From the NCBI GenBank assembly GCA_031409275.1, contig JANNXA010000022.1:96001-160000 (forward strand): DNA of 64,000 bases, read 5' to 3'. Positions 1,260 to 12,391 of this stretch are shown here, one piece after another. Numbering within the stretch: position 1 is the stretch's first letter; every line of letters begins with the position of its first letter. The stretch comes from Planctomycetota bacterium (GTDB lineage: Bacteria > Planctomycetota > B15-G4 > SIAN01). Made by a program: the position numbers and the translations under genes. Under the pieces are notes generated by a model. That model had not been told where the DNA came from, did not search any database, and saw only the letters and a program-made list of their open reading frames with translations.

Positions 1260-2054
1260 ATGGCGACCGACTCGTTCAGCGACGTCCGCAGCGAGCTGCA
1301 ATCACGCTCGACACGGACCACCATCGACGAACTCAAGAAGAAGGGCCTCGACCAGGTCCGCGTGATCCGTTCGAGCCAGATCCTCGAGCTGATCGAGAAG
1401 GCGGTCGATCGCGCACTCGCGCGCCGCGGCGTTCCCGAGAATCCGGCCGAGCGCCAGGAACTCCTCACGGATTCGACGGCCATCTTCCGCGACATGCTGC
1501 GCACCGAGATGCAGCAGCAGCAAGGCACAGCTCAGCGCAACTTCGAGGAACTGAAAGCACGGCTCGAGCAGGACGCCGTCGAGATGCAGGCGCTCGAGCA
1601 GCGGTTGTCGCAGCGCGACACTCAGCTCTCCGAGGCGCTCGCGCGGCAGGCCGAACTCGACGCGGAGCTGCGCGTGCTTCGCCAGCGCTCGCAGGCCGGT
1701 TCGCCGCAGGATCTGCTCGAGGAGCTCCGATCGCTGCGCAAGGAGATCGCCCGTCCGCCGGCGCCGGTCGCGATCGCCGCGCCGCCGGTGGCGCCGGCCG
1801 CGAACGGGGCGCTCGAGAAGAGCATCCAGTCGCTCGGGGCCGAGCTCGCCTCGCAGATCGAGCGCATCGGCCGCAAGGTCGGCGTCTCGAGCGCGGCGGA
1901 AGAGTCTCAGGCGGAGCTGTCCGGACTGTTCCAGTCGATCCCAGAGCTCGAGGGCAACCTCGACGCCGTCGAAGCCAAGGAGCGCAAGGCCAGCGACGTC
2001 TCCGATGCGCTGGCTCGCATGAAGTCCCTACGCGGAAGCAAGGGCGGCACTTGA
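1260..2054 (+). CDS. Coiled-coil protein of unknown function, upstream of actin-like gene
   Basis: 264 aa with strong codon bias, a central E/Q/L/R-rich heptad region, a Pro/Ala linker and a short C-terminal helix (VSDALARMKSLRG). GGGGAG upstream. Confidence 0.85.
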   Translation: MATDSFSDVRSELQSRSTRTTIDELKKKGLDQVRVIRSSQILELIEKAVDRALARRGVPENPAERQELLTDSTAIFRDMLRTEMQQQQGTAQRNFEELKARLEQDAVEMQALEQRLSQRDTQLSEALARQAELDAELRVLRQRSQAGSPQDLLEELRSLRKEIARPPAPVAIAAPPVAPAANGALEKSIQSLGAELASQIERIGRKVGVSSAAEESQAELSGLFQSIPELEGNLDAVEAKERKASDVSDALARMKSLRGSKGGT

Positions 2055-2126: not shown

Positions 2127-3206
2127 ATGGGTAGCGCAGATCAAGGCAACCACGAGAACGGCACGCGTCCGGCGGTCGGCACCACCGGCGTCGCAGAGCG
2201 CCCGTCGAGCGTCGCCAAGATGGCGGGCAAAGGCCTCGACATCGGCACGGCGAACATCCTCGCCGCGGTGCGCGACCAGAAGGGCGGCATCGTCGTCCGC
2301 TGCGAGCGCAACGCCTTCCTCGACATCCAAGGTGACGTGCACAGCCGCTCGATGCTGACTCGGCTGAACGTCCCCTACGTGGTGCACGAGAATTCGCTGA
2401 TCGTGCTCGGCGGTTCCGCCTTCGAGCTCGCCAACGTCTTCGGCCGGCCGACGCGCCGACCGATGAAGGACGGCCTCATCTCCTCGCTGGAGAAGGAGGC
2501 GCTCCCGATGATGCAGATGATCATCAAGAAGGTGCTCGGTGACCCGGCGCAGCCGAACGAGCCGTGCTTCTTCTCCGTGCCGGCCGAGTCGGTCGACAAG
2601 GAGAACAACATCGTCTACCACCAGGGCCTCTTCGCCGGGATGCTCCAGAAGCTGGGCTACAACGCCACGCCGATGAACGAGGGCCACGCGGTGACGTTCG
2701 CCGAGCTCGCAGCCGAGGATTTCACCGGCATCGGCATCAGCTTCGGCGGCGGCATGGTCAACGTCTGCGTCGCCTACAAGACGATCCCGGCGCTCACCTT
2801 CTCGGTGGCGCGCGGCGGCGACTGGATCGACGACAACGCCTCGAAGGTGCTGGGCCTGCCGTCCTCGAAGGTGACGTACATCAAGGAGAGCGGCATGGAC
2901 ATCCGCTCGCCGAAGGGACGCGAGCAGGAAGCGATCGCGATCTACTACCGCAACCTCATCTCCTACACGCTCCAGAACATCCGCAACCGCCTCAACATGG
3001 GGCGTGACCTGCCGAGCTTCACCGATCCGGTCGAGATCGTCTGCGCCGGTGGCACGTCGATGATCCACGGCTTCATCGAGGTGTTCCGCGAAGAGGTGCA
3101 GAAGATCAAGTTCCCGATCGCCATCAAGGGCGTGCGGCTGGGCAAGGAGCCGCTCAACTCCGTCTCGCAGGGCTGCCTCGTCGCCGCCGTCTCGTCGATG
3201 GAATGA
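2127..3206 (+). CDS. Actin-superfamily ATPase, volactin-like (alternative start 2220)
   Basis: Phosphate-1 GLDIGTANI, connect-1 PMNEGHAV, phosphate-2 GISFGGGMVN, adenosine motif VCAGGTS, connect-2 EPLNSVSQG. Also RRPMKDG and FSVARGGDWID blocks. Confidence 0.9.
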   Translation: MGSADQGNHENGTRPAVGTTGVAERPSSVAKMAGKGLDIGTANILAAVRDQKGGIVVRCERNAFLDIQGDVHSRSMLTRLNVPYVVHENSLIVLGGSAFELANVFGRPTRRPMKDGLISSLEKEALPMMQMIIKKVLGDPAQPNEPCFFSVPAESVDKENNIVYHQGLFAGMLQKLGYNATPMNEGHAVTFAELAAEDFTGIGISFGGGMVNVCVAYKTIPALTFSVARGGDWIDDNASKVLGLPSSKVTYIKESGMDIRSPKGREQEAIAIYYRNLISYTLQNIRNRLNMGRDLPSFTDPVEIVCAGGTSMIHGFIEVFREEVQKIKFPIAIKGVRLGKEPLNSVSQGCLVAAVSSME

Positions 3207-3278
3207 GCGAACCGCGGATCGGAGGCGACGCTGCGCGTCACATGACGAGCGGCGTCGCCTCCGCCCGCGTTCCAGCCA

Positions 3279-6275
3279 TCAGTCGAAACGAGATCGCGGC
3301 GGCAACGCCGCGCGCGCGCCATTCGCGAGGTCGCCGAGCAGGAACTCGTGGTTCGTCGTCGCGCCACCGACGAGTTCTCCGCGCCACTGCTGCGACTGCG
3401 TTCCGTCGTCGACCTCGAGGTCGATCGGGCCAGGGTGCAGCGCCGGCAGCGTGACCACCGGCTGGATCGGGACTTCGAACGGCGCGCTCTCCGACGGATG
3501 GACGCGCACCGTCCCGGACAGCGTCGCACCGTCGCTCCGAGCGAACGTCAGGCGCAGCGCGCACGGGCGCTGCAGGTCGACGAAGCCGCTGCCGCGCGCG
3601 ATGCCGACCGATGCATCGACGCGTGTCCGCAGATGACCATCGGCGTCGGCCTGCAGCCACCAGCCATTCGGCGCGGGTGTGCCGCAACACTCGAAGAGCC
3701 CGGCGTCCGAGGTCTCGATGCGGGCGAAGGGCGGCCCATCCCCACAGTGGAGCTCGATCGTTCCTGCCGCGACGGGAGCGGAGGAGGCCATGTCGCGCAG
3801 CTGAATGGAGCTGATGTCGGCGCCGGCGTCGAGCTCCATCGGGGGCATCTCCACGCCGCTTACGACGCGCGCGACCTTCGATGCCAGCAGCAGCCGATTC
3901 GCGGTCGTCGCAAACGCCGTGATCTCCCAGCTACCGGGTTCCATTCCAAGCAGCACGAAGCGGCCGTCGAGCTCGACCGAGGCGCAGCGCCAGTCCGCGC
4001 GTGCGTCCGAGTCGACGCGGCGCGCGACGACGCGAGCATTCCCCGACGCCACGCGTAGCGACGGCCCGATTCGGCCCTCGACGCGGCTGGCCGACGCCGA
4101 CGCGAATGGCACCTCGACGACCGTTCCGGCCTCCACCGTGACGACGCGCTCCTGAGCGGCGTAGTTGTGCCAGGTCGAGGAGAGCCACTCGTCCAGGAGC
4201 CGCAGTCGCACGCATCCGACCGGCCACTGGGGGATGACGATGTGCGCGTCGGACGAGAATCTCAGCGCCAGCTCGGCGCCGTCCGCGCCGTCGATCAGCA
4301 GATGAAGCGCGGTTGCGCGGCGGGCCAGCGCGTCGTCGAGCGTCACGGAGATCGAACCGACGCGCGGCCAGCGCCAGACAGCGTCTTCGGTCGGTGGAGG
4401 CAATTCGAAGCGGACTGGCGGGTCGCTCCCGCGCTCGCAGATCCAGCTCGAGTCGCTGTCGACGGGGACCTCGAGTCGGAACATTCCGTCGCGATCGCTG
4501 ATCGCGGGCGCGGCGAGCGGATGGGGGAGCCAGCGACCGTGCGCGGCGGGAACGGCTGGCCGAGCGATGACACCGGCGATGGGGAGCGAGTTGCCATCGA
4601 CGAGCTGCACGCGGCGAGGGGTCGCACGTCGCAGCACGATCGTGTCGAGCCCGCCCGTACCTTCCGCCGAGCCGGGACGTCGCTCGAACGCGGCAGCGTC
4701 GAAGCCCTGCGCCGCGATCAGCACGCGATGGGGGATCGGCGCGAGGTCACAGCACGTCGCCTGCCCGCTCGCGTCGGTGACGGTGGCGCGCGGTGCCGAC
4801 TGGTTCCAGTCGATCGACTCGTGCTCACGGATCGCGTGCAGCGGGATTGCGATGACCCGTGCGCCGGCGATCGGCGCGCCGATCGGATCGACGATCCGAA
4901 CGGCGAGATCGGCGAGCCGCTCCAACGGGAGCAGCAGCGAGTCGGCCGGGGCGCGGTAGGGGCCGGCATCGAGTGGAGCGAAACCTGGTGCGCGCACCTC
5001 GACGTGGTAGAGGCGGCCATCGGCGGTCCACGGCAACGCGAAGTTCCCGCGTTCGTCGCTCATGACCCAGCCGACCACGAGATGGTCGGTCAATGAGCCG
5101 ACGATGACTTCGGCCCCTGCGATGGGCCGGGTCTCGGCATCAACGACTCGCCCGTTGAAGCGTGACTCGTGGTCGAGCCGGATCAAGAAGGTCCCGGCGC
5201 GCAACTCGTCGGGCTCGACTTCGCGCCGCGTGGCGGCGAAGCCGTCGCATTGGACCGAGAGGACCACCGCCGCGAGCGGGATCTCGGCGGCGGTGAAGAA
5301 ACCGTCCGCGTCGCTGCGCGACACCTCGCGTTCGTCGACCGGCAGCACTCCGAGACGGCCGCAGCGGATCGACGCGCCGACGATCGGTCGGTCGTCGGCG
5401 GTCACCACTCGGCCGCAAAGCTCGATCGGCCGTGCGAGCTCGAGCTGCAACGGGAGGCGATCGTCGACCGCGGTTCGCTCGCTTGGACAGTAACCCGTGG
5501 ATTCGCATTCGACCGACCAGGGTGGCGGAAAGTCCGGGCGCAACGAGAAGGCGCCGTCGACCGCGCACCGAAGCTCCTGGTCGGGCGAACGCTCCGAACG
5601 AACCACGAGCTTCGCTGGCAGCGGTCGCCGCGGCTCATCGAGCTCGCGCACTTGTCCGCGGAGAGTCGCGCGCGCGACGAGGGGCAGGGCAAGACGACCG
5701 CGCGCGACGATGACACCATCGATCTCGACGTGTTGCGTCAGAAGATCGGCGCCGCGAAGCCACAGTTCGTCGCCGACAGCGACCTCGATCGTGAACGGAG
5801 CGACATGTTCATCGAGTCGATGGCGGGCCGACTCCACATTCGCAGCGCTGCGCGCGCCGAGGTTCGCCGCTTTACGGTGCTCCAGCACGTGGTCGGGTGG
5901 AGGCGCCGCCGACGCGTCTCGAACTGCTCGAGTCGATGGTCCGCGGACGAACTCGACGAGGAGGCGGTGCCTTGCGCCGCTCCCCGCTTCGGGCGCAGCT
6001 GGGGGGCTCGCCTCCAGACTTCGAATCGCGCCCGAGCTTGAACTCGAGTCGGGCGCGGAGTTGGCGTCGCCCCGCGCCCCTGCGATCTCGGTGGCGAACT
6101 CGTCCGGTGCCGCAGGCTCACTCGCAACGTCGCGCAGCGCCGGCAGTCGGCTACCGTCGCCATCAGCGCGCTCTCGGTCATTGAGCAAGCCACGGACGGC
6201 GAACCACAACGCGAGCGTTGCGATCGCGACCGCTGCGCGCTGCAGCCATTCATGTCCGCTCCTGCGTGTACTCAC
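3279..6275 (-). CDS. Large membrane-anchored protein with tandem carboxypeptidase-regulatory-like (transthyretin-like beta) domains
   Basis: N-terminal TM (AAVAIATLALWFAV) and repeated GRVV..D.RPIAGA.V...SD..G.F units. GTG start at 6275 overlaps the upstream stop (GTGA); the track start at 6509 is probably too long. Confidence 0.75.
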   Translation of the reverse strand: MSTRRSGHEWLQRAAVAIATLALWFAVRGLLNDRERADGDGSRLPALRDVASEPAAPDEFATEIAGARGDANSAPDSSSSSGAIRSLEASPPAAPEAGSGARHRLLVEFVRGPSTRAVRDASAAPPPDHVLEHRKAANLGARSAANVESARHRLDEHVAPFTIEVAVGDELWLRGADLLTQHVEIDGVIVARGRLALPLVARATLRGQVRELDEPRRPLPAKLVVRSERSPDQELRCAVDGAFSLRPDFPPPWSVECESTGYCPSERTAVDDRLPLQLELARPIELCGRVVTADDRPIVGASIRCGRLGVLPVDEREVSRSDADGFFTAAEIPLAAVVLSVQCDGFAATRREVEPDELRAGTFLIRLDHESRFNGRVVDAETRPIAGAEVIVGSLTDHLVVGWVMSDERGNFALPWTADGRLYHVEVRAPGFAPLDAGPYRAPADSLLLPLERLADLAVRIVDPIGAPIAGARVIAIPLHAIREHESIDWNQSAPRATVTDASGQATCCDLAPIPHRVLIAAQGFDAAAFERRPGSAEGTGGLDTIVLRRATPRRVQLVDGNSLPIAGVIARPAVPAAHGRWLPHPLAAPAISDRDGMFRLEVPVDSDSSWICERGSDPPVRFELPPPTEDAVWRWPRVGSISVTLDDALARRATALHLLIDGADGAELALRFSSDAHIVIPQWPVGCVRLRLLDEWLSSTWHNYAAQERVVTVEAGTVVEVPFASASASRVEGRIGPSLRVASGNARVVARRVDSDARADWRCASVELDGRFVLLGMEPGSWEITAFATTANRLLLASKVARVVSGVEMPPMELDAGADISSIQLRDMASSAPVAAGTIELHCGDGPPFARIETSDAGLFECCGTPAPNGWWLQADADGHLRTRVDASVGIARGSGFVDLQRPCALRLTFARSDGATLSGTVRVHPSESAPFEVPIQPVVTLPALHPGPIDLEVDDGTQSQQWRGELVGGATTNHEFLLGDLANGARAALPPRSRFD

Positions 6276-6502
6276 TGTGCGGGTTGGACGGGCGGGGGCG
6301 GGACGATGGCTGGTGCGGGCGGTGGTGGCGGGAGCGCCCCGCGAGTCACGTCCGTCGTTCCCGTTCCCGTCTGCGGACCGCCACGCGTTGCGGTGGCCGC
6401 GGTGCCGCCGCCGGCGCGTGCCGCCGCCTCCAGGATGCAAAGACCAAGCGCCGAGGCGAGGGCGGCACCAAGGAGCCATCGCCAGTTTCGCGGAGGCTTC
6501 AA
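6272..6502 (-). CDS. Small (76 aa) putative secreted peptide
   Basis: TTG start with GGAG 7 nt upstream. Start overlaps the upstream stop (TTGA) and stop overlaps the downstream start (GTGA). Signal-peptide-like KPPRNWRWLLGAALASALGLCILEAAARA, then Gly/Thr-rich core and poly-Pro tail. Confidence 0.6.
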   Translation of the reverse strand: MKPPRNWRWLLGAALASALGLCILEAAARAGGGTAATATRGGPQTGTGTTDVTRGALPPPPPAPAIVPPPPVQPAQ

Positions 6503-7299
6503 GCGACAACTCCAGAGGAAAGGAGAACGGTGGTTTGAGTCAGCATTCGCGCCGCGATCTGGCGCGCTCGCGCCGGGGCGCCGACGCCGCGATCCGCGAG
6601 AGCGAGGAGCTGGCCTTCGAGCGCGAGGGCCCGCCGGCGCACGTCGTGGGGTGCGCCGACCTGCAGCGCTGCACGGAAATGGAACTCGGCAAGCGCCGGT
6701 CGACGCAGCGACATCGCGTAGACGGCGCACGTCCAATGTGAGGCGAGCTGCCGCGGATCGAGCGAGGTGGCGCGCTCCAGCAATTGCACGGCGTCCTCGA
6801 CGCGCGCGTCGTCCGCTTGAAGGATGGCTCGATGCAGCAGCGCCCGCGCCGCCGCGCCGCGCGCCCGAGCCGATGCGAACGCCTGGGCGAATCCTCGATC
6901 GGCGGCGTCGTTGTGTCCTTCCAACCAATCGAGCTGGGCCATCGCGAGATGAGCCGACGAGGCGTGATCACTCATCTGTGCCGCTGCGCGGAGGAGATCG
7001 CGCGCCAGCGCGGCGCGCGAGGGCGTCGTCGGGAGGTGGTCGTTCCTGGCGCAGGGCGCGAGCAGCGCTTCGAGGCGCGAACGCAGGTGGGGCGGCAACC
7101 CGTGCCGAAGGTGCGGATCGGCCAGGCAGTCATGGATGCGCGACTCGAGCGACGCCGATTCGACCGAGTTCGACCGCCGTTCGCACGGAAACGCGTTCCG
7201 AAAGCCGGCGTCGAGCTGCAGCAACTCGACCGCGACGCGAGTCAGTCGATGGGCTGAACGCTGTTCGAGCATCGTGGTGACGTGGGTCGCAACGCTCAT
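6499..7299 (-). CDS. TPR-containing protein
   Basis: ATG 7299 with AAGGAG upstream and ATGA overlap with the upstream gene. Helical repeats such as VEDAVQLLERATSLDP and ALAEFHFRAAL. Confidence 0.7.
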   Translation of the reverse strand: MSVATHVTTMLEQRSAHRLTRVAVELLQLDAGFRNAFPCERRSNSVESASLESRIHDCLADPHLRHGLPPHLRSRLEALLAPCARNDHLPTTPSRAALARDLLRAAAQMSDHASSAHLAMAQLDWLEGHNDAADRGFAQAFASARARGAAARALLHRAILQADDARVEDAVQLLERATSLDPRQLASHWTCAVYAMSLRRPALAEFHFRAALQVGAPHDVRRRALALEGQLLALADRGVGAPARARQIAARMLTQTTVLLSSGVVA

Positions 7300-8102
7300 G
7301 GTTGGCTCCTTCCGTGCGTGAGCGCCGGTCGACGCAGGCAGGCCTGCGCCCACGCCATCGAATGGTCGATCTCGAGTCGATATCGCTCCACCGCGCTCGC
7401 ATGCGAAAGAAGATGTGCGACCGAAGGCGACTGCGGCGAGGTCTCGGGTGCGTGATGGGGCGCGCAATCCTCCAGAAGCATCGAGCGGTCGTGCCGGGAT
7501 AGCTGCAGCAGCGTCTGCGCGGCGACGACGCGCGCCGCGGCGGCCGAGATGTCGCTGCGCGCGAATGCCAGGAGCGATTCAGGAAGCTCAATGCGTTCGG
7601 CGAGCGCCTCGACGAGCAGCTCCGGCGCCTCGTGCTCGTTGAGGATCGGAACGAAACCTCGGCACTCGTCGGTGAACGCGATCATCACGCGGCGGCAGCG
7701 ACGGTGGATCGACTGGTACTCGCGTTCGATGGAACGCGATGCGATCGAGCGCACGGCATCGAGCGTCTCGGCGAGCACTTCAGCCGTGAGCGGCTCGATG
7801 CTCGCAGGCAGCGCTTGTTCATCGGCGATACGACGCAGCTCGTCCGCGACTTCGCGGCGATTGAGCTGGCAGAACAGCAGCAAAAGGTCCGGGTCGTCGC
7901 GCACGCGCAGCCGCTCAAGGAGCGCGATCGACGCGTCGCCGACGGTTTGGCCGGAATCGAGATCCGGACAACTTCGAGCGAGCAGCGCCTGCTCGTCCGT
8001 GGAAATTGGACGCAAGCCGCAGGCGGCTTGACCTTGATCGGTGCGATGGGCGGCCATTCGCTTCGTCCGTGAATGCGCGACCGCCGTGCACGCGCCTTCC
8101 AA
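7296..8102 (-). CDS. Hypothetical protein, possibly divergent ECF sigma-factor-like
   Basis: All-helical. ALLERLRVRDDPDLLLLFCQLNR resembles an ECF N-terminus and LLQLSRHDRSMLL resembles the start of region 4. Start uncertain (TTG 8102 or a later ATG). Confidence 0.45.
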   Translation of the reverse strand: MEGACTAVAHSRTKRMAAHRTDQGQAACGLRPISTDEQALLARSCPDLDSGQTVGDASIALLERLRVRDDPDLLLLFCQLNRREVADELRRIADEQALPASIEPLTAEVLAETLDAVRSIASRSIEREYQSIHRRCRRVMIAFTDECRGFVPILNEHEAPELLVEALAERIELPESLLAFARSDISAAAARVVAAQTLLQLSRHDRSMLLEDCAPHHAPETSPQSPSVAHLLSHASAVERYRLEIDHSMAWAQACLRRPALTHGRSQP

Positions 8103-8358
8103 CCGATCCCTTCCCCGTGGAAGAGAAGTATTGAAGTTGTGGCCAACCTGCGCAACTAGGACAAAGTATGTAATTTGATCGGGTGACTACTCATGGGGTG
8201 GCTGCGGACGGGCGGGCTGGGGCTCTCGATCATCATGGACTTAACGTCTGATAATAAATGTTCTGATGACATTAGCCTGGGGAGCAGCTGGACCTGTTGG
8301 CCCGAACTCGTCCTCGACGTTCGAAACGCGCCTTTGCGAGGCGGCCCGGCCGACTTCG

Positions 8359-9585
8359 CTACGGATTTCGCGCCGGCTTCGACTGGCGTGCGGCCGTGTA
8401 GTCGTGAAGTCGAGCGAGCTGGCGATACAGGTCGTGCTCGTGCGCGTGCATCGGGTTCTTGAAGAACGATGCGAGTTGCGTCATCGGTCCGCTCTCGCCA
8501 CGCGCCAACGCTCCGGCGGCGAAGCGCGCGAGGTCGAGGACGAGCGGTGCCGCCAGGATCGAGTCGCAGCCTTGCCAGGTGAACTGCATCGCCATCGGGT
8601 GGCCGAGGAACCCGCGGAAATGGATGTAGTCCCAGGCCACCTTGCTGTCGCCGAGCGATTCGACGTAGTCGATGCCCACGCGCGTGCGTACCGGCTGGCC
8701 GAGGATGCTGGCGAGGACGCTGTCCTTGGTGGCGATCTTCGAACTTTTGTTCTCGCCCTCGGCCAACACCTGGCCGTCGCGGTTGCCGAGGATGTTGTAG
8801 CCCACCCACGACATCACCTCGAGCTGGCGCGCACGGAACATGGGCGCCAAGCCCGATTTCACCAGCGTTTCGCCGGTTTTGCCGTCGTTCCCCATGTAGG
8901 GAAGTCCGCGCCTCGCGGCGAGCTCCTCGATCGCTCCGCAGAGGCACGACGGTGAGGCCGTGAAATTGATGAACGCCGCACCGCTCGCCATCGCGGCGTA
9001 GGCGTACAGCACGCCGGGACGAAACGCCGAGGCGGGCAGCTGGTCGAGCGCGCGATCGAGTCGATCGAGGTCGGACATGACCTCCGGGTTGGTCGGTGGC
9101 GGTTCGGTCGAGGCGACGTTCACGACGACAAGTGCCGAGAGTCCGCGCCGATTGCGAAAATCGCGAAGGTGCGACGCGAGAGTCTCGATGCACGTCCGGC
9201 CGGTTTCCGATGGGACGAGATGGGTAGGGTCGGCGATCGCCTCGATCGCCCCACCACCGCCGCGGGCCTGGCCGGGCCGGATCTCGCGATCGATCGCCGC
9301 GAGCTCGTCGCCGAGTCGGTCGATCCACTCGCTTCGAATGGAGCCATTCTCGTGGCCGATCAGGCGGGCCGCCTCGGCCAGCGCAACGGGGCGGATGTCG
9401 TGTCCGCCGAACACGAGTTGCGGGAGATCGGGGAGGCCGAGGCTCGCGAATTCCGGCGCGTCGCTGACCAGCGCCGTTCGACCCGCCAGTCCGTTCACGA
9501 TCGCGCGCGCTCCCACGATGGCGGTCGTGGCGAGCGTCCCTCCGGCGCCGACGAGCCAGACGCCGACCGATGGATTCGCACTCAT
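8359..9585 (-). CDS. ino1: myo-Inositol-1-phosphate synthase
   Basis: VGVWLVGAGG, VFGGHDI, VVNVASTE, GNDGKTGETLVK, NILGNRDG, LGDSKVAWD, GCDSILAAPLVLDL, FFKNP. Confidence 0.95.
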   Translation of the reverse strand: MSANPSVGVWLVGAGGTLATTAIVGARAIVNGLAGRTALVSDAPEFASLGLPDLPQLVFGGHDIRPVALAEAARLIGHENGSIRSEWIDRLGDELAAIDREIRPGQARGGGGAIEAIADPTHLVPSETGRTCIETLASHLRDFRNRRGLSALVVVNVASTEPPPTNPEVMSDLDRLDRALDQLPASAFRPGVLYAYAAMASGAAFINFTASPSCLCGAIEELAARRGLPYMGNDGKTGETLVKSGLAPMFRARQLEVMSWVGYNILGNRDGQVLAEGENKSSKIATKDSVLASILGQPVRTRVGIDYVESLGDSKVAWDYIHFRGFLGHPMAMQFTWQGCDSILAAPLVLDLARFAAGALARGESGPMTQLASFFKNPMHAHEHDLYRQLARLHDYTAARQSKPARNP

Positions 9586-10399: not shown

Positions 10400-12391
10400 A
10401 TGTCAACGGCTTGGCTGAAGACCGGCCTATCGGCAGCGATCGCGCTGCTCACGTGCGCCCCGGTGTGGGCGCATGGCGGCAACTACAAGGGGCCGACCGA
10501 CACCGTCCCGCCGAACCTTGGCGGTGGCGGTGACACGACCCCACCGGGCAACCCCGGTGGCCCCGGTACGCCCGGGCCTGGCGCTCCGACCACCGGTGGC
10601 CAGAAGGGCCCCGCGACCGGCGGCGTTCCGACCGGGCCGACGGGCGGCGCGGGCGCTGGCATGCGTCCGTCCACCGGCGGCATCGGCAGCAAGCGCGGCG
10701 GCGGCGAAGGATTCGAGCGCTGGGAGTTCTGGTGGGAGCACAACAAGGATCCGTTCCTGGACCTGAAGGCACGCCTTGCGAAGGGCGCGGTCTCTTCGGG
10801 TACCGGCGGCTTCCTCACCGGCCGTACCAAGCTCATCGAAGCGGTCAGCGCCAACCGGCCGACTGCGAGCGAGATCAAGGACAACCTGATTCCGGCGTTC
10901 ATCGAAGCGCTCGGCGAGAAGCATCCTGACATCGTCGACTCCGCGGCCCTCGCCATCGGGCGCACGCTGCGGTTCGAAGACGCGCAGCTCGTGATGCAGA
11001 CGCTGACGGGCGCGCTTGGACACTCGGAGAAGACCGGTCGCGAAGCCGCCACGCTCGCCATGGGCGTGCTCGGTTCGCCGAGCGCGGTCGAGACCTTGCG
11101 CGAATTGCTGAACGACACCAGCAAGGGACGGCAGCTCACCGGCCAGTCGGCGGGCGTCGAGGACATGGTCCGCGGGTTCGCGGCCGCTTCGCTCGGAATG
11201 ATCGGCGAGCCGGGCGCGATCGACGACCTGAAGAAGATCATCTCCGACGAGACGTTGGCATCGAAGCTCGACGTCAAGGCCCTCTCGATCCTCGCGCTGG
11301 GGATGATGAGGGAGCGTCATGAGGAGGTCGCTTCCTTCCTGCTTGGCGTGATGGAAGATCGCTCGCTGAACATCTACGTTCGCGCGCAGGCTCCGATCGC
11401 GCTTGGCCGGCTGAATCGTCAGTCGGACGCCGGATCCCCCGCGGCGCACCTGGTGCTCGCGCCGAAGATCGTGCCGATGTTCCAGGACGACAAGGCCGAC
11501 AACGACCTGCGCCGTTCGCTCGCGATCTGCATCGGCATGCTTGCGACCGTCGAAGACACCGAGTCGATCGAGGCGCTCCTGAACGCGGTCGCCAAGGGCA
11601 GCGATGACCAGACGCGTCACTTCTCGATCATGGCGCTCGCTCAGATCGGCGCGCGCGATGCCGAGCCCGCCAAGCACGAGGATGCGCACACGAAGCTGCG
11701 CGAGTTCTTCCTGCGCGAGCTGACCCAGCCGAAGAAGATCACGCACCAGCCGTTCGGTGCACTCGGCCTCGCGGTCTATGCGCGCAACGAGAAGCTCACG
11801 CCCGAAGTGAAGGCGCAGGCGCAGACCAAGCTGCTCGAAGCCTTCGAGCAGACCAGCAACCCCTCCTATCAGGGCGCGATGGCCATCGGGCTCGGCTTGC
11901 TCGACTACAAGCTCGGCGGCGAGAAGCTGTGGGCGAAGTTCGAGGACTCGAACGATCAGCCGCTCAAGGGCTACATCGCGGTTTCCCTCGGCCTCATGCG
12001 TGTCAATTCGAAGGCGGAGACGCTGCGCAAGCTCATCACGAGCAAGGGCCTCGAGCAGAAGTTCAAGCTGCAGCTGGCGCGGTCGCTCGGCCTCATGGGC
12101 GACACGGCGGCGGTGCAGACGCTGATCGAGTACCTCCAGTCGGCAGAGACGCTGGCGGAGTCGTCCTCGGCGGCGCAGGCCCTCGGCCTGATCGGCGATC
12201 GCAGCGCGGTCGATCCGCTGCTCGCCATCTTGCGCAACAAGTCGAAGCAGCCGCTCCAGCGCGGTTTCGCGGCGGTCGCGCTCGGCATCATCGCCGAGAA
12301 GACGACGCTGCCGTGGAATGCGTGCTTCTCGGTCAACGCGAACTACCGTGCCAAGGTGAACGCGCTGTCCGAGATCCTCGACATCCTCTGA
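10400..12391 (+). CDS. Exported HEAT-repeat (alpha-solenoid) protein
   Basis: Signal peptide ending VWA|HGG, Gly/Pro/Thr linker, WEFWWEHNKDP motif, many AALALG.IG-type HEAT repeats. GGAG upstream of ATG 10400. Confidence 0.9.
   Translation: MSTAWLKTGLSAAIALLTCAPVWAHGGNYKGPTDTVPPNLGGGGDTTPPGNPGGPGTPGPGAPTTGGQKGPATGGVPTGPTGGAGAGMRPSTGGIGSKRGGGEGFERWEFWWEHNKDPFLDLKARLAKGAVSSGTGGFLTGRTKLIEAVSANRPTASEIKDNLIPAFIEALGEKHPDIVDSAALAIGRTLRFEDAQLVMQTLTGALGHSEKTGREAATLAMGVLGSPSAVETLRELLNDTSKGRQLTGQSAGVEDMVRGFAAASLGMIGEPGAIDDLKKIISDETLASKLDVKALSILALGMMRERHEEVASFLLGVMEDRSLNIYVRAQAPIALGRLNRQSDAGSPAAHLVLAPKIVPMFQDDKADNDLRRSLAICIGMLATVEDTESIEALLNAVAKGSDDQTRHFSIMALAQIGARDAEPAKHEDAHTKLREFFLRELTQPKKITHQPFGALGLAVYARNEKLTPEVKAQAQTKLLEAFEQTSNPSYQGAMAIGLGLLDYKLGGEKLWAKFEDSNDQPLKGYIAVSLGLMRVNSKAETLRKLITSKGLEQKFKLQLARSLGLMGDTAAVQTLIEYLQSAETLAESSSAAQALGLIGDRSAVDPLLAILRNKSKQPLQRGFAAVALGIIAEKTTLPWNACFSVNANYRAKVNALSEILDIL

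Follow-up and report, generated by a model that had tools for sequence, protein, structure and literature searches.

Does a Planctomycetota bacterium use a small peptide, read by a tetratricopeptide repeat (TPR) protein, to control a sigma factor? The question is raised by a four-gene cassette on the minus strand (3279..8102) of a 64,000-nt stretch of contig JANNXA010000022.1, hereafter the window. Its open reading frames (ORFs), named A, B, C and D, encode a sigma-like protein, a TPR protein, a small peptide with a predicted signal and a large surface protein (Table 1). The original prediction, made from the sequence alone, was a circuit of the RRNPP (Rap-Phr) type in which the TPR receptor would control both the sigma-like factor and the surface protein. 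We found the cassette to be real, conserved and apparently undescribed. Its gene order, the coding constraint on the peptide gene and its ancestry from an extracytoplasmic function (ECF) sigma factor and a TPR protein carrying a zinc-binding anti-sigma (ZAS) domain are established.

A conserved four-gene cassette

The four ORFs are joined, as first described, by three 4-nt start/stop overlaps (ATGA 7296-7299, TTGA 6499-6502 and GTGA 6272-6275). Overlaps of this kind are common in the genome (of 1832 co-directional pairs counted crudely across the genome, 588 could overlap by -4), so that three in a row say little by themselves. They carry weight because they are conserved across orthologous loci beyond chance: each of the three junctions is a 4-nt overlap at 7/7 loci, though the proteins average 36-50% identity. 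The weaker codon usage and AT-rich upstream region noticed at the outset were confirmed as well. GC content at third codon positions is 0.71-0.81 within the cassette versus 0.83-0.93 in four flanking genes, and the segment 8120-8269 (GC 0.487) lies below all 1277 sampled 150-nt segments of the window, being the most AT-rich one sampled. The entire stretch is also present, free of any difference, in one public assembly, which may itself be where this DNA came from.

We call the window's cassette and its orthologues type I and the paralogous cassettes type II; G000 is the window's genome. Within the genus, three of the four remaining genomes have a type I cassette. When metagenome contigs were scanned for the core pattern of the peptide, five matches came up, all inside this cassette; one is identical to the locus of genome G001 and two share one peptide, which leaves seven distinct type I loci including the window. 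Paralogous sigma-TPR-small ORF cassettes, which the original prediction had proposed to look for in the genome and its relatives, do exist: profile searches recovered nine type II cassettes in five genomes, one of them in G000, where within-genome tblastn had given the paralogue as a weak match at most. This G000 copy (G000:C12:66025-71658, or L020:6026-11659, minus strand) comprises a sigma gene with intact sigma-4 whose 5′ end is cut by the contig end, a ZAS-TPR gene, a gene for a 76-aa peptide with GGPSTG and a CarboxypepD-repeat gene. Generally, type II cassettes keep an intact sigma-4, a ZAS-TPR protein and a GGPxTG-like peptide of their own, with a CarboxypepD-repeat protein in 8/9.

The relatives carrying cassettes are Planctomycetota metagenome-assembled genomes, and type II partners were detected in 3/4 type I genomes. 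Full-length matches were confined to six of the eight genomes of the window's family, with none in 34 other genomes of the class; among 401 genomes of the phylum (six candidates scored per genome) just partial, generic TPR matches were seen outside the family (best 6e-13). None of 27 core-pattern matches on viral contigs was confirmed as a relative. The sequencing runs containing the locus come from a single study of freshwater sediment metagenomes; they provide DNA contigs only, no RNA dataset being listed among them. Type I and type II separate with full support in the sigma tree as well as in the TPR tree, and the two trees agree on which loci pair most closely; their deeper forks differ or stay open.

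The small gene is under coding constraint

ORF C was examined for presence and coding in every homologous locus; it is there in each, and it is a true gene under coding constraint. Among the seven type I loci, the DNA of its core shows eight variable columns, every one at a third codon position. This 11-residue core is also the longest invariant run in the operon, the longest in B, A and D reaching 5, 4 and 4 residues. In all 16 cassettes a small ORF lies directly behind the TPR gene, with an overlap of 4-14 nt, and all 16 carry a [GS]GP motif. Its length is 67-86 aa in 15 cassettes and 29 aa in one. The type II motifs are GGPSTG, GGPDSG, GGPLTG, GGPETG, GGPTTG, GGPATG, GGPVDL, SGPGSG and SGPGFG. 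Neither Pfam nor NCBIfam gave a match for ORF C.

By heuristic criteria the predicted signal of ORF C consists of a basic n-region, a 16-residue uncharged stretch (residues 9-24) and an AxA near residues 28-30. A basic n-region with a hydrophobic stretch (12-residue mean 1.99-3.58) recurs in 15/16 small ORFs, where it could also serve as an uncleaved anchor. Eight of the nine type II small ORFs have the hydrophobic stretch, the exception being L047 (L047:5159-5248, G003:C18): this 29-aa ORF has kept its ribosome site and GGPATGT, and no CarboxypepD gene lies behind it. When G000 was scanned for short ORFs combining a hydrophobic stretch with the motif, four were obtained, two at the cassettes and two resembling antisense noise.

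Two other explanations of the motif region were rejected. A frameshift fusion of B and C would need a slippery site; inspection by eye revealed no conserved one, and the conserved letters are those of the Shine-Dalgarno sequence. In LPxTG sortase signals the hydrophobic stretch follows the motif; here it lies before it.

A TPR protein of ZAS anti-sigma ancestry

The model of ORF B is a predicted TPR superhelix (predicted local distance difference test, pLDDT, 91.0). Its best fold match is PilF (Z 14.2); PlcR (Z 11.4, root-mean-square deviation (rmsd) 4.5, 172 residues aligned) and RapH (Z 10.6) are among the matches, below generic TPR proteins. In scans of Pfam and NCBIfam, the Pfam TPR match reached E 0.066 for ORF B and 1.5e-4 for one orthologue, and the ESM Atlas returned generic TPR clusters. 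The best 19-residue hydropathy of ORF B is 1.25, and its family shows no clear membrane helix.

The TPR fold proposed originally is thus upheld by the model; the kinship is a different one, with descent from a ZAS anti-sigma and not from a Rap/PlcR-type regulator. In hhalign, ORF B aligned with the type II family at 98.6% (E 4.8e-16), from its first residues to the region just after ZAS. The zinc motif C-x~25-HxxxCxxC, invariant in 9/9 type II proteins and present in 32 of 41 wider family members, was not found in ORF B or its seven orthologues. Those 41 members are single-stretch rows of 220-390 aa, hand-picked from 150 rows listed in a search of 1.84 billion representatives, with 109 long multi-TPR rows left out. 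In a quick unrooted tree, three ZAS-bearing proteins fall inside a clade of ZAS-less ones (support 1.0), in line with loss of the domain. ORF B derives from this soluble ZAS-TPR family and has lost ZAS.

Three TPRs are in register at residues 114-214; we set these registers manually, guided by the Pfam match and the consensus glycines and without use of the model coordinates. A further one or two hairpins may be formed by the helices on either side. The groove of such repeats is formed by positions 2, 5, 6, 9, 12 and 13, and the position-6 Asn contacts peptide backbones (PMC1261162). Among eight type I proteins, 7/18 groove positions are invariant versus 2/33 outer-helix positions (Fisher p 0.006), and comparison with all 45 non-structural positions gave p 0.028, figures obtained on kin that are not independent. 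In the 41-member family W125 is found in 38, Asn/His at 156 in 38 and Asn/Thr at 190 in 37; residues 156 and 190 are position 6 of two repeats. By analogy, this conservation fits the expectation for a peptide-binding groove.

The sigma-like protein has lost its helix-turn-helix

ORF A most likely starts at ATG 8057 and not at TTG 8102, as database protein P0006 and six aligned orthologue starts agree. It had no Pfam or NCBIfam match, and the ESM Atlas gave a lead at 0.78 and no more. We therefore turned to an AlphaFold2 model (17 sequences; pLDDT 83.7, predicted TM-score 0.80). When this model was compared with 48,161 chains by VIA-align, the 26 best rows were all sigma factors, aligned over 85-93 residues, the best with Z 9.4 and rmsd 2.8 over 90 residues; Foldseek E values were 0.3 or worse (0.3-0.5). 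Since Z 8-9 is middling for a helical domain, the predicted sigma-2 assignment draws on the uniformity of this list and on the paralogues. E93, invariant among type I proteins, is at what we take to be a position of the region-2.2 motif.

The sigma-like character put forward originally is accordingly retained for the predicted sigma-2 fold, but the helix-turn-helix (HTH) for -35 binding is missing in the window's copy. Aligned with nine type II sequences, 8/8 type I rows have a 12-residue gap at the HTH turn and the start of the recognition helix; the model has a single long helix (213-241) where the sigma-4 HTH is expected, and its best sigma-4 structural match has Z 5.4. A Pfam sigma-4 match was obtained for 7/9 type II sigmas, whose sigma-2 is too divergent for Pfam and which give weak matches to PhyR-family hidden Markov models (HMMs). 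ORF A descends from an ECF sigma factor. Because the HTH turn is deleted in all type I rows, it is unlikely to read a -35 element.

A peptide switch and its rivals

The reading that we favour, although for us its chances are evenly balanced, is that of a lineage-specific cassette derived from a sigma/anti-sigma pair, in which the core of an exported propeptide returns, binds the TPR groove and controls the sigma-like protein. It is suggested by the fixed TPR-peptide adjacency, the invariant core, the peptide-type groove and the different peptides found among paralogues; G000 has two, G003 three and G006 four, as expected of cognate pairs within one genome. The ORF C propeptide would be exported by Sec and trimmed on both sides of the core, which would re-enter the cytoplasm through a single Opp/Dpp-type ATP-binding cassette (ABC) system and bind the groove of ORF B, with release of the sigma. 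All six cassette genomes encode a family-5 peptide-binding protein. In G000 its gene belongs to an operon for an Opp/Dpp-type ABC system (binding protein, permease, ATPase; G000:C36:97912-103774), a candidate importer; OppC_N was not found in G000. ORF D would be a co-translated envelope protein, either target or co-sensor. As the cell is diderm, the signal may report on its own periplasm rather than on neighbours.

Type II cassettes would represent the complete switch, their ZAS domain holding a two-domain sigma until the peptide binds. In type I, the joint loss of ZAS and HTH with strong conservation of the rest suggests a decoy or an atypical sigma, not decay. That the window's ORF A is a peptide-gated decoy occupying the anti-sigma or RNA polymerase is, in our estimate, a little short of an even chance; that it is a sigma that ignores the -35 element is somewhat less probable. 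We are more doubtful of the widest version, in which a diderm phylum would independently have evolved its own RRNPP-like signalling between cells: the ZAS anti-sigma would be the TPR receptor, an exported GGPxTG peptide would switch the ECF sigma directly, each paralogue would form an orthogonal channel, and the window's copy would add a second layer, an HTH-less sigma decoy gated by its own invariant peptide.

Several observations weigh against the peptide switch. The core lies inside the propeptide, 32-42 residues short of its C terminus, with prolines flanking it. Its release therefore needs two cuts, and no protease gene lies within the cassette. Family-5 binding proteins also occur in 11/14 control genomes, and their presence therefore says little. 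The recognisable TPRs are three, against 5-9 in RRNPPA receptors, and the conserved groove could instead bind protein A or another protein. The type II motif is short and Gly/Pro-rich, and in G006 two copies have decayed to SGP.{2}G; a secreted HEAT-repeat protein encoded nearby has similar PxTGG words in its low-complexity N terminus. ORF A matches the type II sigma profiles modestly (64%, E 6.5e-5), and G001 has a type I cassette and no type II match, which weakens the decoy idea. Finally, eight ORFs of G000 (~900-1300 codons) fuse sigma-2, sigma-4, a membrane helix or hydrophobic stretch and CarboxypepD repeats (C28:53179 and 54104, C46:14122 and 17930, C51:153854, C11:30330, C24:78700 and C9:192681). 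CarboxypepD arrays would thus commonly be the sensory end of ECF sigmas here, which argues against ORF D as a plain output.

These fusions are the starting point of the main rival, which we consider rather improbable: a trans-envelope ECF relay in which ORF C, cleaved and periplasmic or membrane-anchored, binds ORF D, and D or C signals across the inner membrane to a soluble TPR anti-sigma, the cassette being a split form of the sigma-membrane helix-CarboxypepD fusion. The original assignment of ORF D as a surface protein agrees with its hydrophobic anchor/signal and CarboxypepD repeats; its role as a controlled output is less secure, as it may be a sensory input. No catalytic domain was found in it. 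A CarboxypepD protein follows the peptide gene in 15/16 cassettes, and ORF D orthologues, with the -4 overlap, do so in 7/7 type I loci. The relay would also account for the peptide motif being on the exported side and for L047, the only cassette whose peptide has lost the hydrophobic stretch and one that is also without D; FecR-like anti-sigmas with TPRs are known (ECF267; PMC7826278). It sits less well with the cytoplasmic N-terminal tails of C and D, which are short and variable and leave little for the conserved groove of B to read, with D being the least conserved part (mean identity 36%) next to an invariant core, and with the Shine-Dalgarno sequence and GGPATGT that L047 retains despite losing signal and D, a single case that is possibly a remnant. 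In another type II locus (L051:1765-8447, G006:C22), the cassette is followed by two tandem CarboxypepD-repeat genes of ~1090 codons.

ORF C could alternatively be an output, a structural envelope peptide, for example glycosylated or otherwise modified, that assembles with D beside an ordinary soluble sigma/anti-sigma pair, the groove binding the sigma or other cytoplasmic protein. The Thr/Gly/Pro-rich composition and the PxTGG repeats of the nearby HEAT protein fit such a role, and a protein partner explains groove conservation equally well. We nevertheless hold it to be unlikely, given that no modifying enzyme is encoded in the 16 cassettes read, that short signal-plus-motif ORFs occur in G000 at the two cassettes only and that in every one of the 16 the small gene comes immediately after the TPR gene. 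Lastly, the loss of ZAS and HTH and a codon bias weaker than that of the flanks could mark the window's copy as a decaying type II duplicate devoid of regulatory role, a view very improbable and largely refuted already by reading frames that are intact and hardly vary in length (A 248-255, B 264-270 aa) at 46% mean identity in seven loci, by identical deletions in all type I loci, by the invariant peptide core and upstream box and by a conserved position beside a volactin gene.

Relation to known systems

The closest functional parallel to the peptide switch is the RRNPP(A) group of Bacillota (Rap-Phr, PlcR-PapR, NprR-NprX, AimR-AimP). Its five-point signature includes a cytoplasmic TPR protein of 250-500 aa and an adjacent gene of 10-100 aa with a signal-peptide-like N terminus (PMC10075063), and its receptors have 5-9 TPRs (PMC9765709). 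ORF B, with 266 aa and a small ORF in the 10-100 aa range adjacent to it, resembles this arrangement. The differences are the diderm host, an output module that is a ZAS anti-sigma or absent where RRNPP proteins have an HTH or a three-helix bundle, and three recognisable TPRs in a protein for which generic TPR proteins score at least as well as RRNPP members. ORF B also falls short of the TPR HMM threshold of RRNPP_detector (E<1e-5), and no sequence link to RRNPP proteins was seen. The cassette thus plausibly works like RRNPP systems, by analogy; it lacks two of their defining features and is not established as a member.

With the class I ZAS systems (SigR-RsrA, SigW-RsiW, SigE-ChrR), type II cassettes share a sigma gene followed by that of a C-x~25-HxxxCxxC protein in 9/9. 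They differ in their anti-sigma, a soluble protein that ends in a TPR domain and has a peptide gene behind its own, and the window's copy differs in having neither ZAS nor HTH. The ZAS motif and the sigma mimicry of PhyR are described in PMC4598750. In PhyR-NepR-EcfG of Alphaproteobacteria, as proposed for ORF A, a sigma-like protein would bind an anti-sigma and not DNA (PMC4598750); ORF A (253 aa), however, has no receiver domain, gating would be by the TPR partner, and for one of the four type I genomes no type II partner was detected. For an exported precursor with an internal motif, the diderm precedent is PatX-PatP-HetR of filamentous cyanobacteria: PatX is a small Sec-exported precursor from which periplasmic cleavage frees an internal motif, and this motif binds a regulator in the cytoplasm (PMC12756182). 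That receptor, HetR, is neither a TPR protein nor an anti-sigma. Planctomycete ECF sigmas with C-terminal extensions are discussed in PMC7671368, and the eight fusions of G000 likewise tie CarboxypepD repeats to ECF sigmas; in the cassette, sigma and CarboxypepD are separate genes with the TPR and peptide genes between them.

Full-text literature searches gave no sigma-ZAS-TPR-peptide cassette, no RRNPP-like system in Planctomycetota and no anti-sigma that a peptide controls via a TPR domain; the supplement of PMC7826278 (group contexts) and a paper on 79 planctomycetes were outside their scope and could bear on novelty. Cytoplasmic TPR peptide receptors have been described from Bacillota and their mobile elements. 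If the peptide does bind the TPR protein, the cassette would constitute a new route of ECF sigma regulation and an instance of peptide signalling among Planctomycetota, a switch of a kind known mainly from Gram-positive bacteria in an uncultured family of this phylum, and its 16 natural receptor-peptide pairs would make specificity testable. Even under the relay, it would be a four-part ECF module that is undescribed, in which both the small protein and a sigma without a -35 reader are conserved.

Flanking DNA and neighbouring genes

Table 1. Features of the cassette and its borders (window positions)
Feature	Position	Strand	Description
ORF A	7296..8057	-	253 aa, ECF-sigma-derived protein; sigma-2 fold at residues ~36-134 (model); degenerate sigma-4, HTH turn deleted
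ORF B	6499..7299	-	266 aa, soluble TPR protein, ZAS domain absent; homologous to post-ZAS part of ZAS-TPR anti-sigma-like proteins
ORF C	6272..6502	-	76 aa, TTG start; predicted signal peptide, Gly/Thr linker, core, Pro-rich tail
Shine-Dalgarno GGAG of ORF C	6510..6513	-	within end of ORF B; invariant, 7 nt before start, 7/7 loci
Core GGPQTGTGTTD	6350..6382	-	residues 41-51 of ORF C; candidate active peptide region; invariant in 7/7 type I loci
ORF D	3279..6275	-	998 aa; N-terminal hydrophobic anchor/signal; repeated CarboxypepD_reg beta-sandwich domains (PF13620, E 2.2e-32)
Upstream DNA box	8244..8265	-	consensus CAGAA.A.T.ATTATCAGACGT; putative regulator/promoter site; invariant columns in 6/6 type I upstream regions
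Putative sigma70-like promoter	8127..8155	-	-35 TTGCGC 8150-8155, -10 AATACT 8127-8132, 17-nt spacer; by eye
Long hairpin	3200..3285		between ORF D and convergent volactin gene; -54.8 kcal/mol, z -5.87, 0/200 shuffles

The upstream box has one copy in the genome with up to four mismatches allowed, and none was found upstream of eight type II loci with up to six; these eight regions, compared with each other, had no motif in common. Its ATTATCA half presumably resembles a Fur-type half site. In the putative promoter, the TTG of the -35 and the spacing are kept in a six-locus alignment read by eye. At the other end, the hairpin is likely a terminator serving both ORF D and the volactin gene; an Rfam search with it gave just one sub-threshold chance match.

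The volactin gene (PF25216, E 2e-84; 2127-3206, plus strand), convergent with the cassette, is 87-94% identical across relatives and is preceded by a coiled-coil gene (1260-2054, plus strand), the two forming a conserved actin-like pair. The secreted HEAT-repeat protein (~10400-12391, plus strand) has an HGGxY start and a Gly/Pro/Thr N terminus with PxTGG repeats resembling the peptide motif; two similar proteins are encoded at G000:C18:41454 and C22:35497. A myo-inositol-1-phosphate synthase gene (8359-9585, minus strand) is the conserved upstream neighbour of type I cassettes. In one relative (L010:3047-7032, G004:C11) an insertion of ~4 kb, holding a gene for a ClpP-like SDH protease (PF01972) and unknown ORFs, separates this synthase gene from the type I cassette, and the upstream box remains with the cassette.

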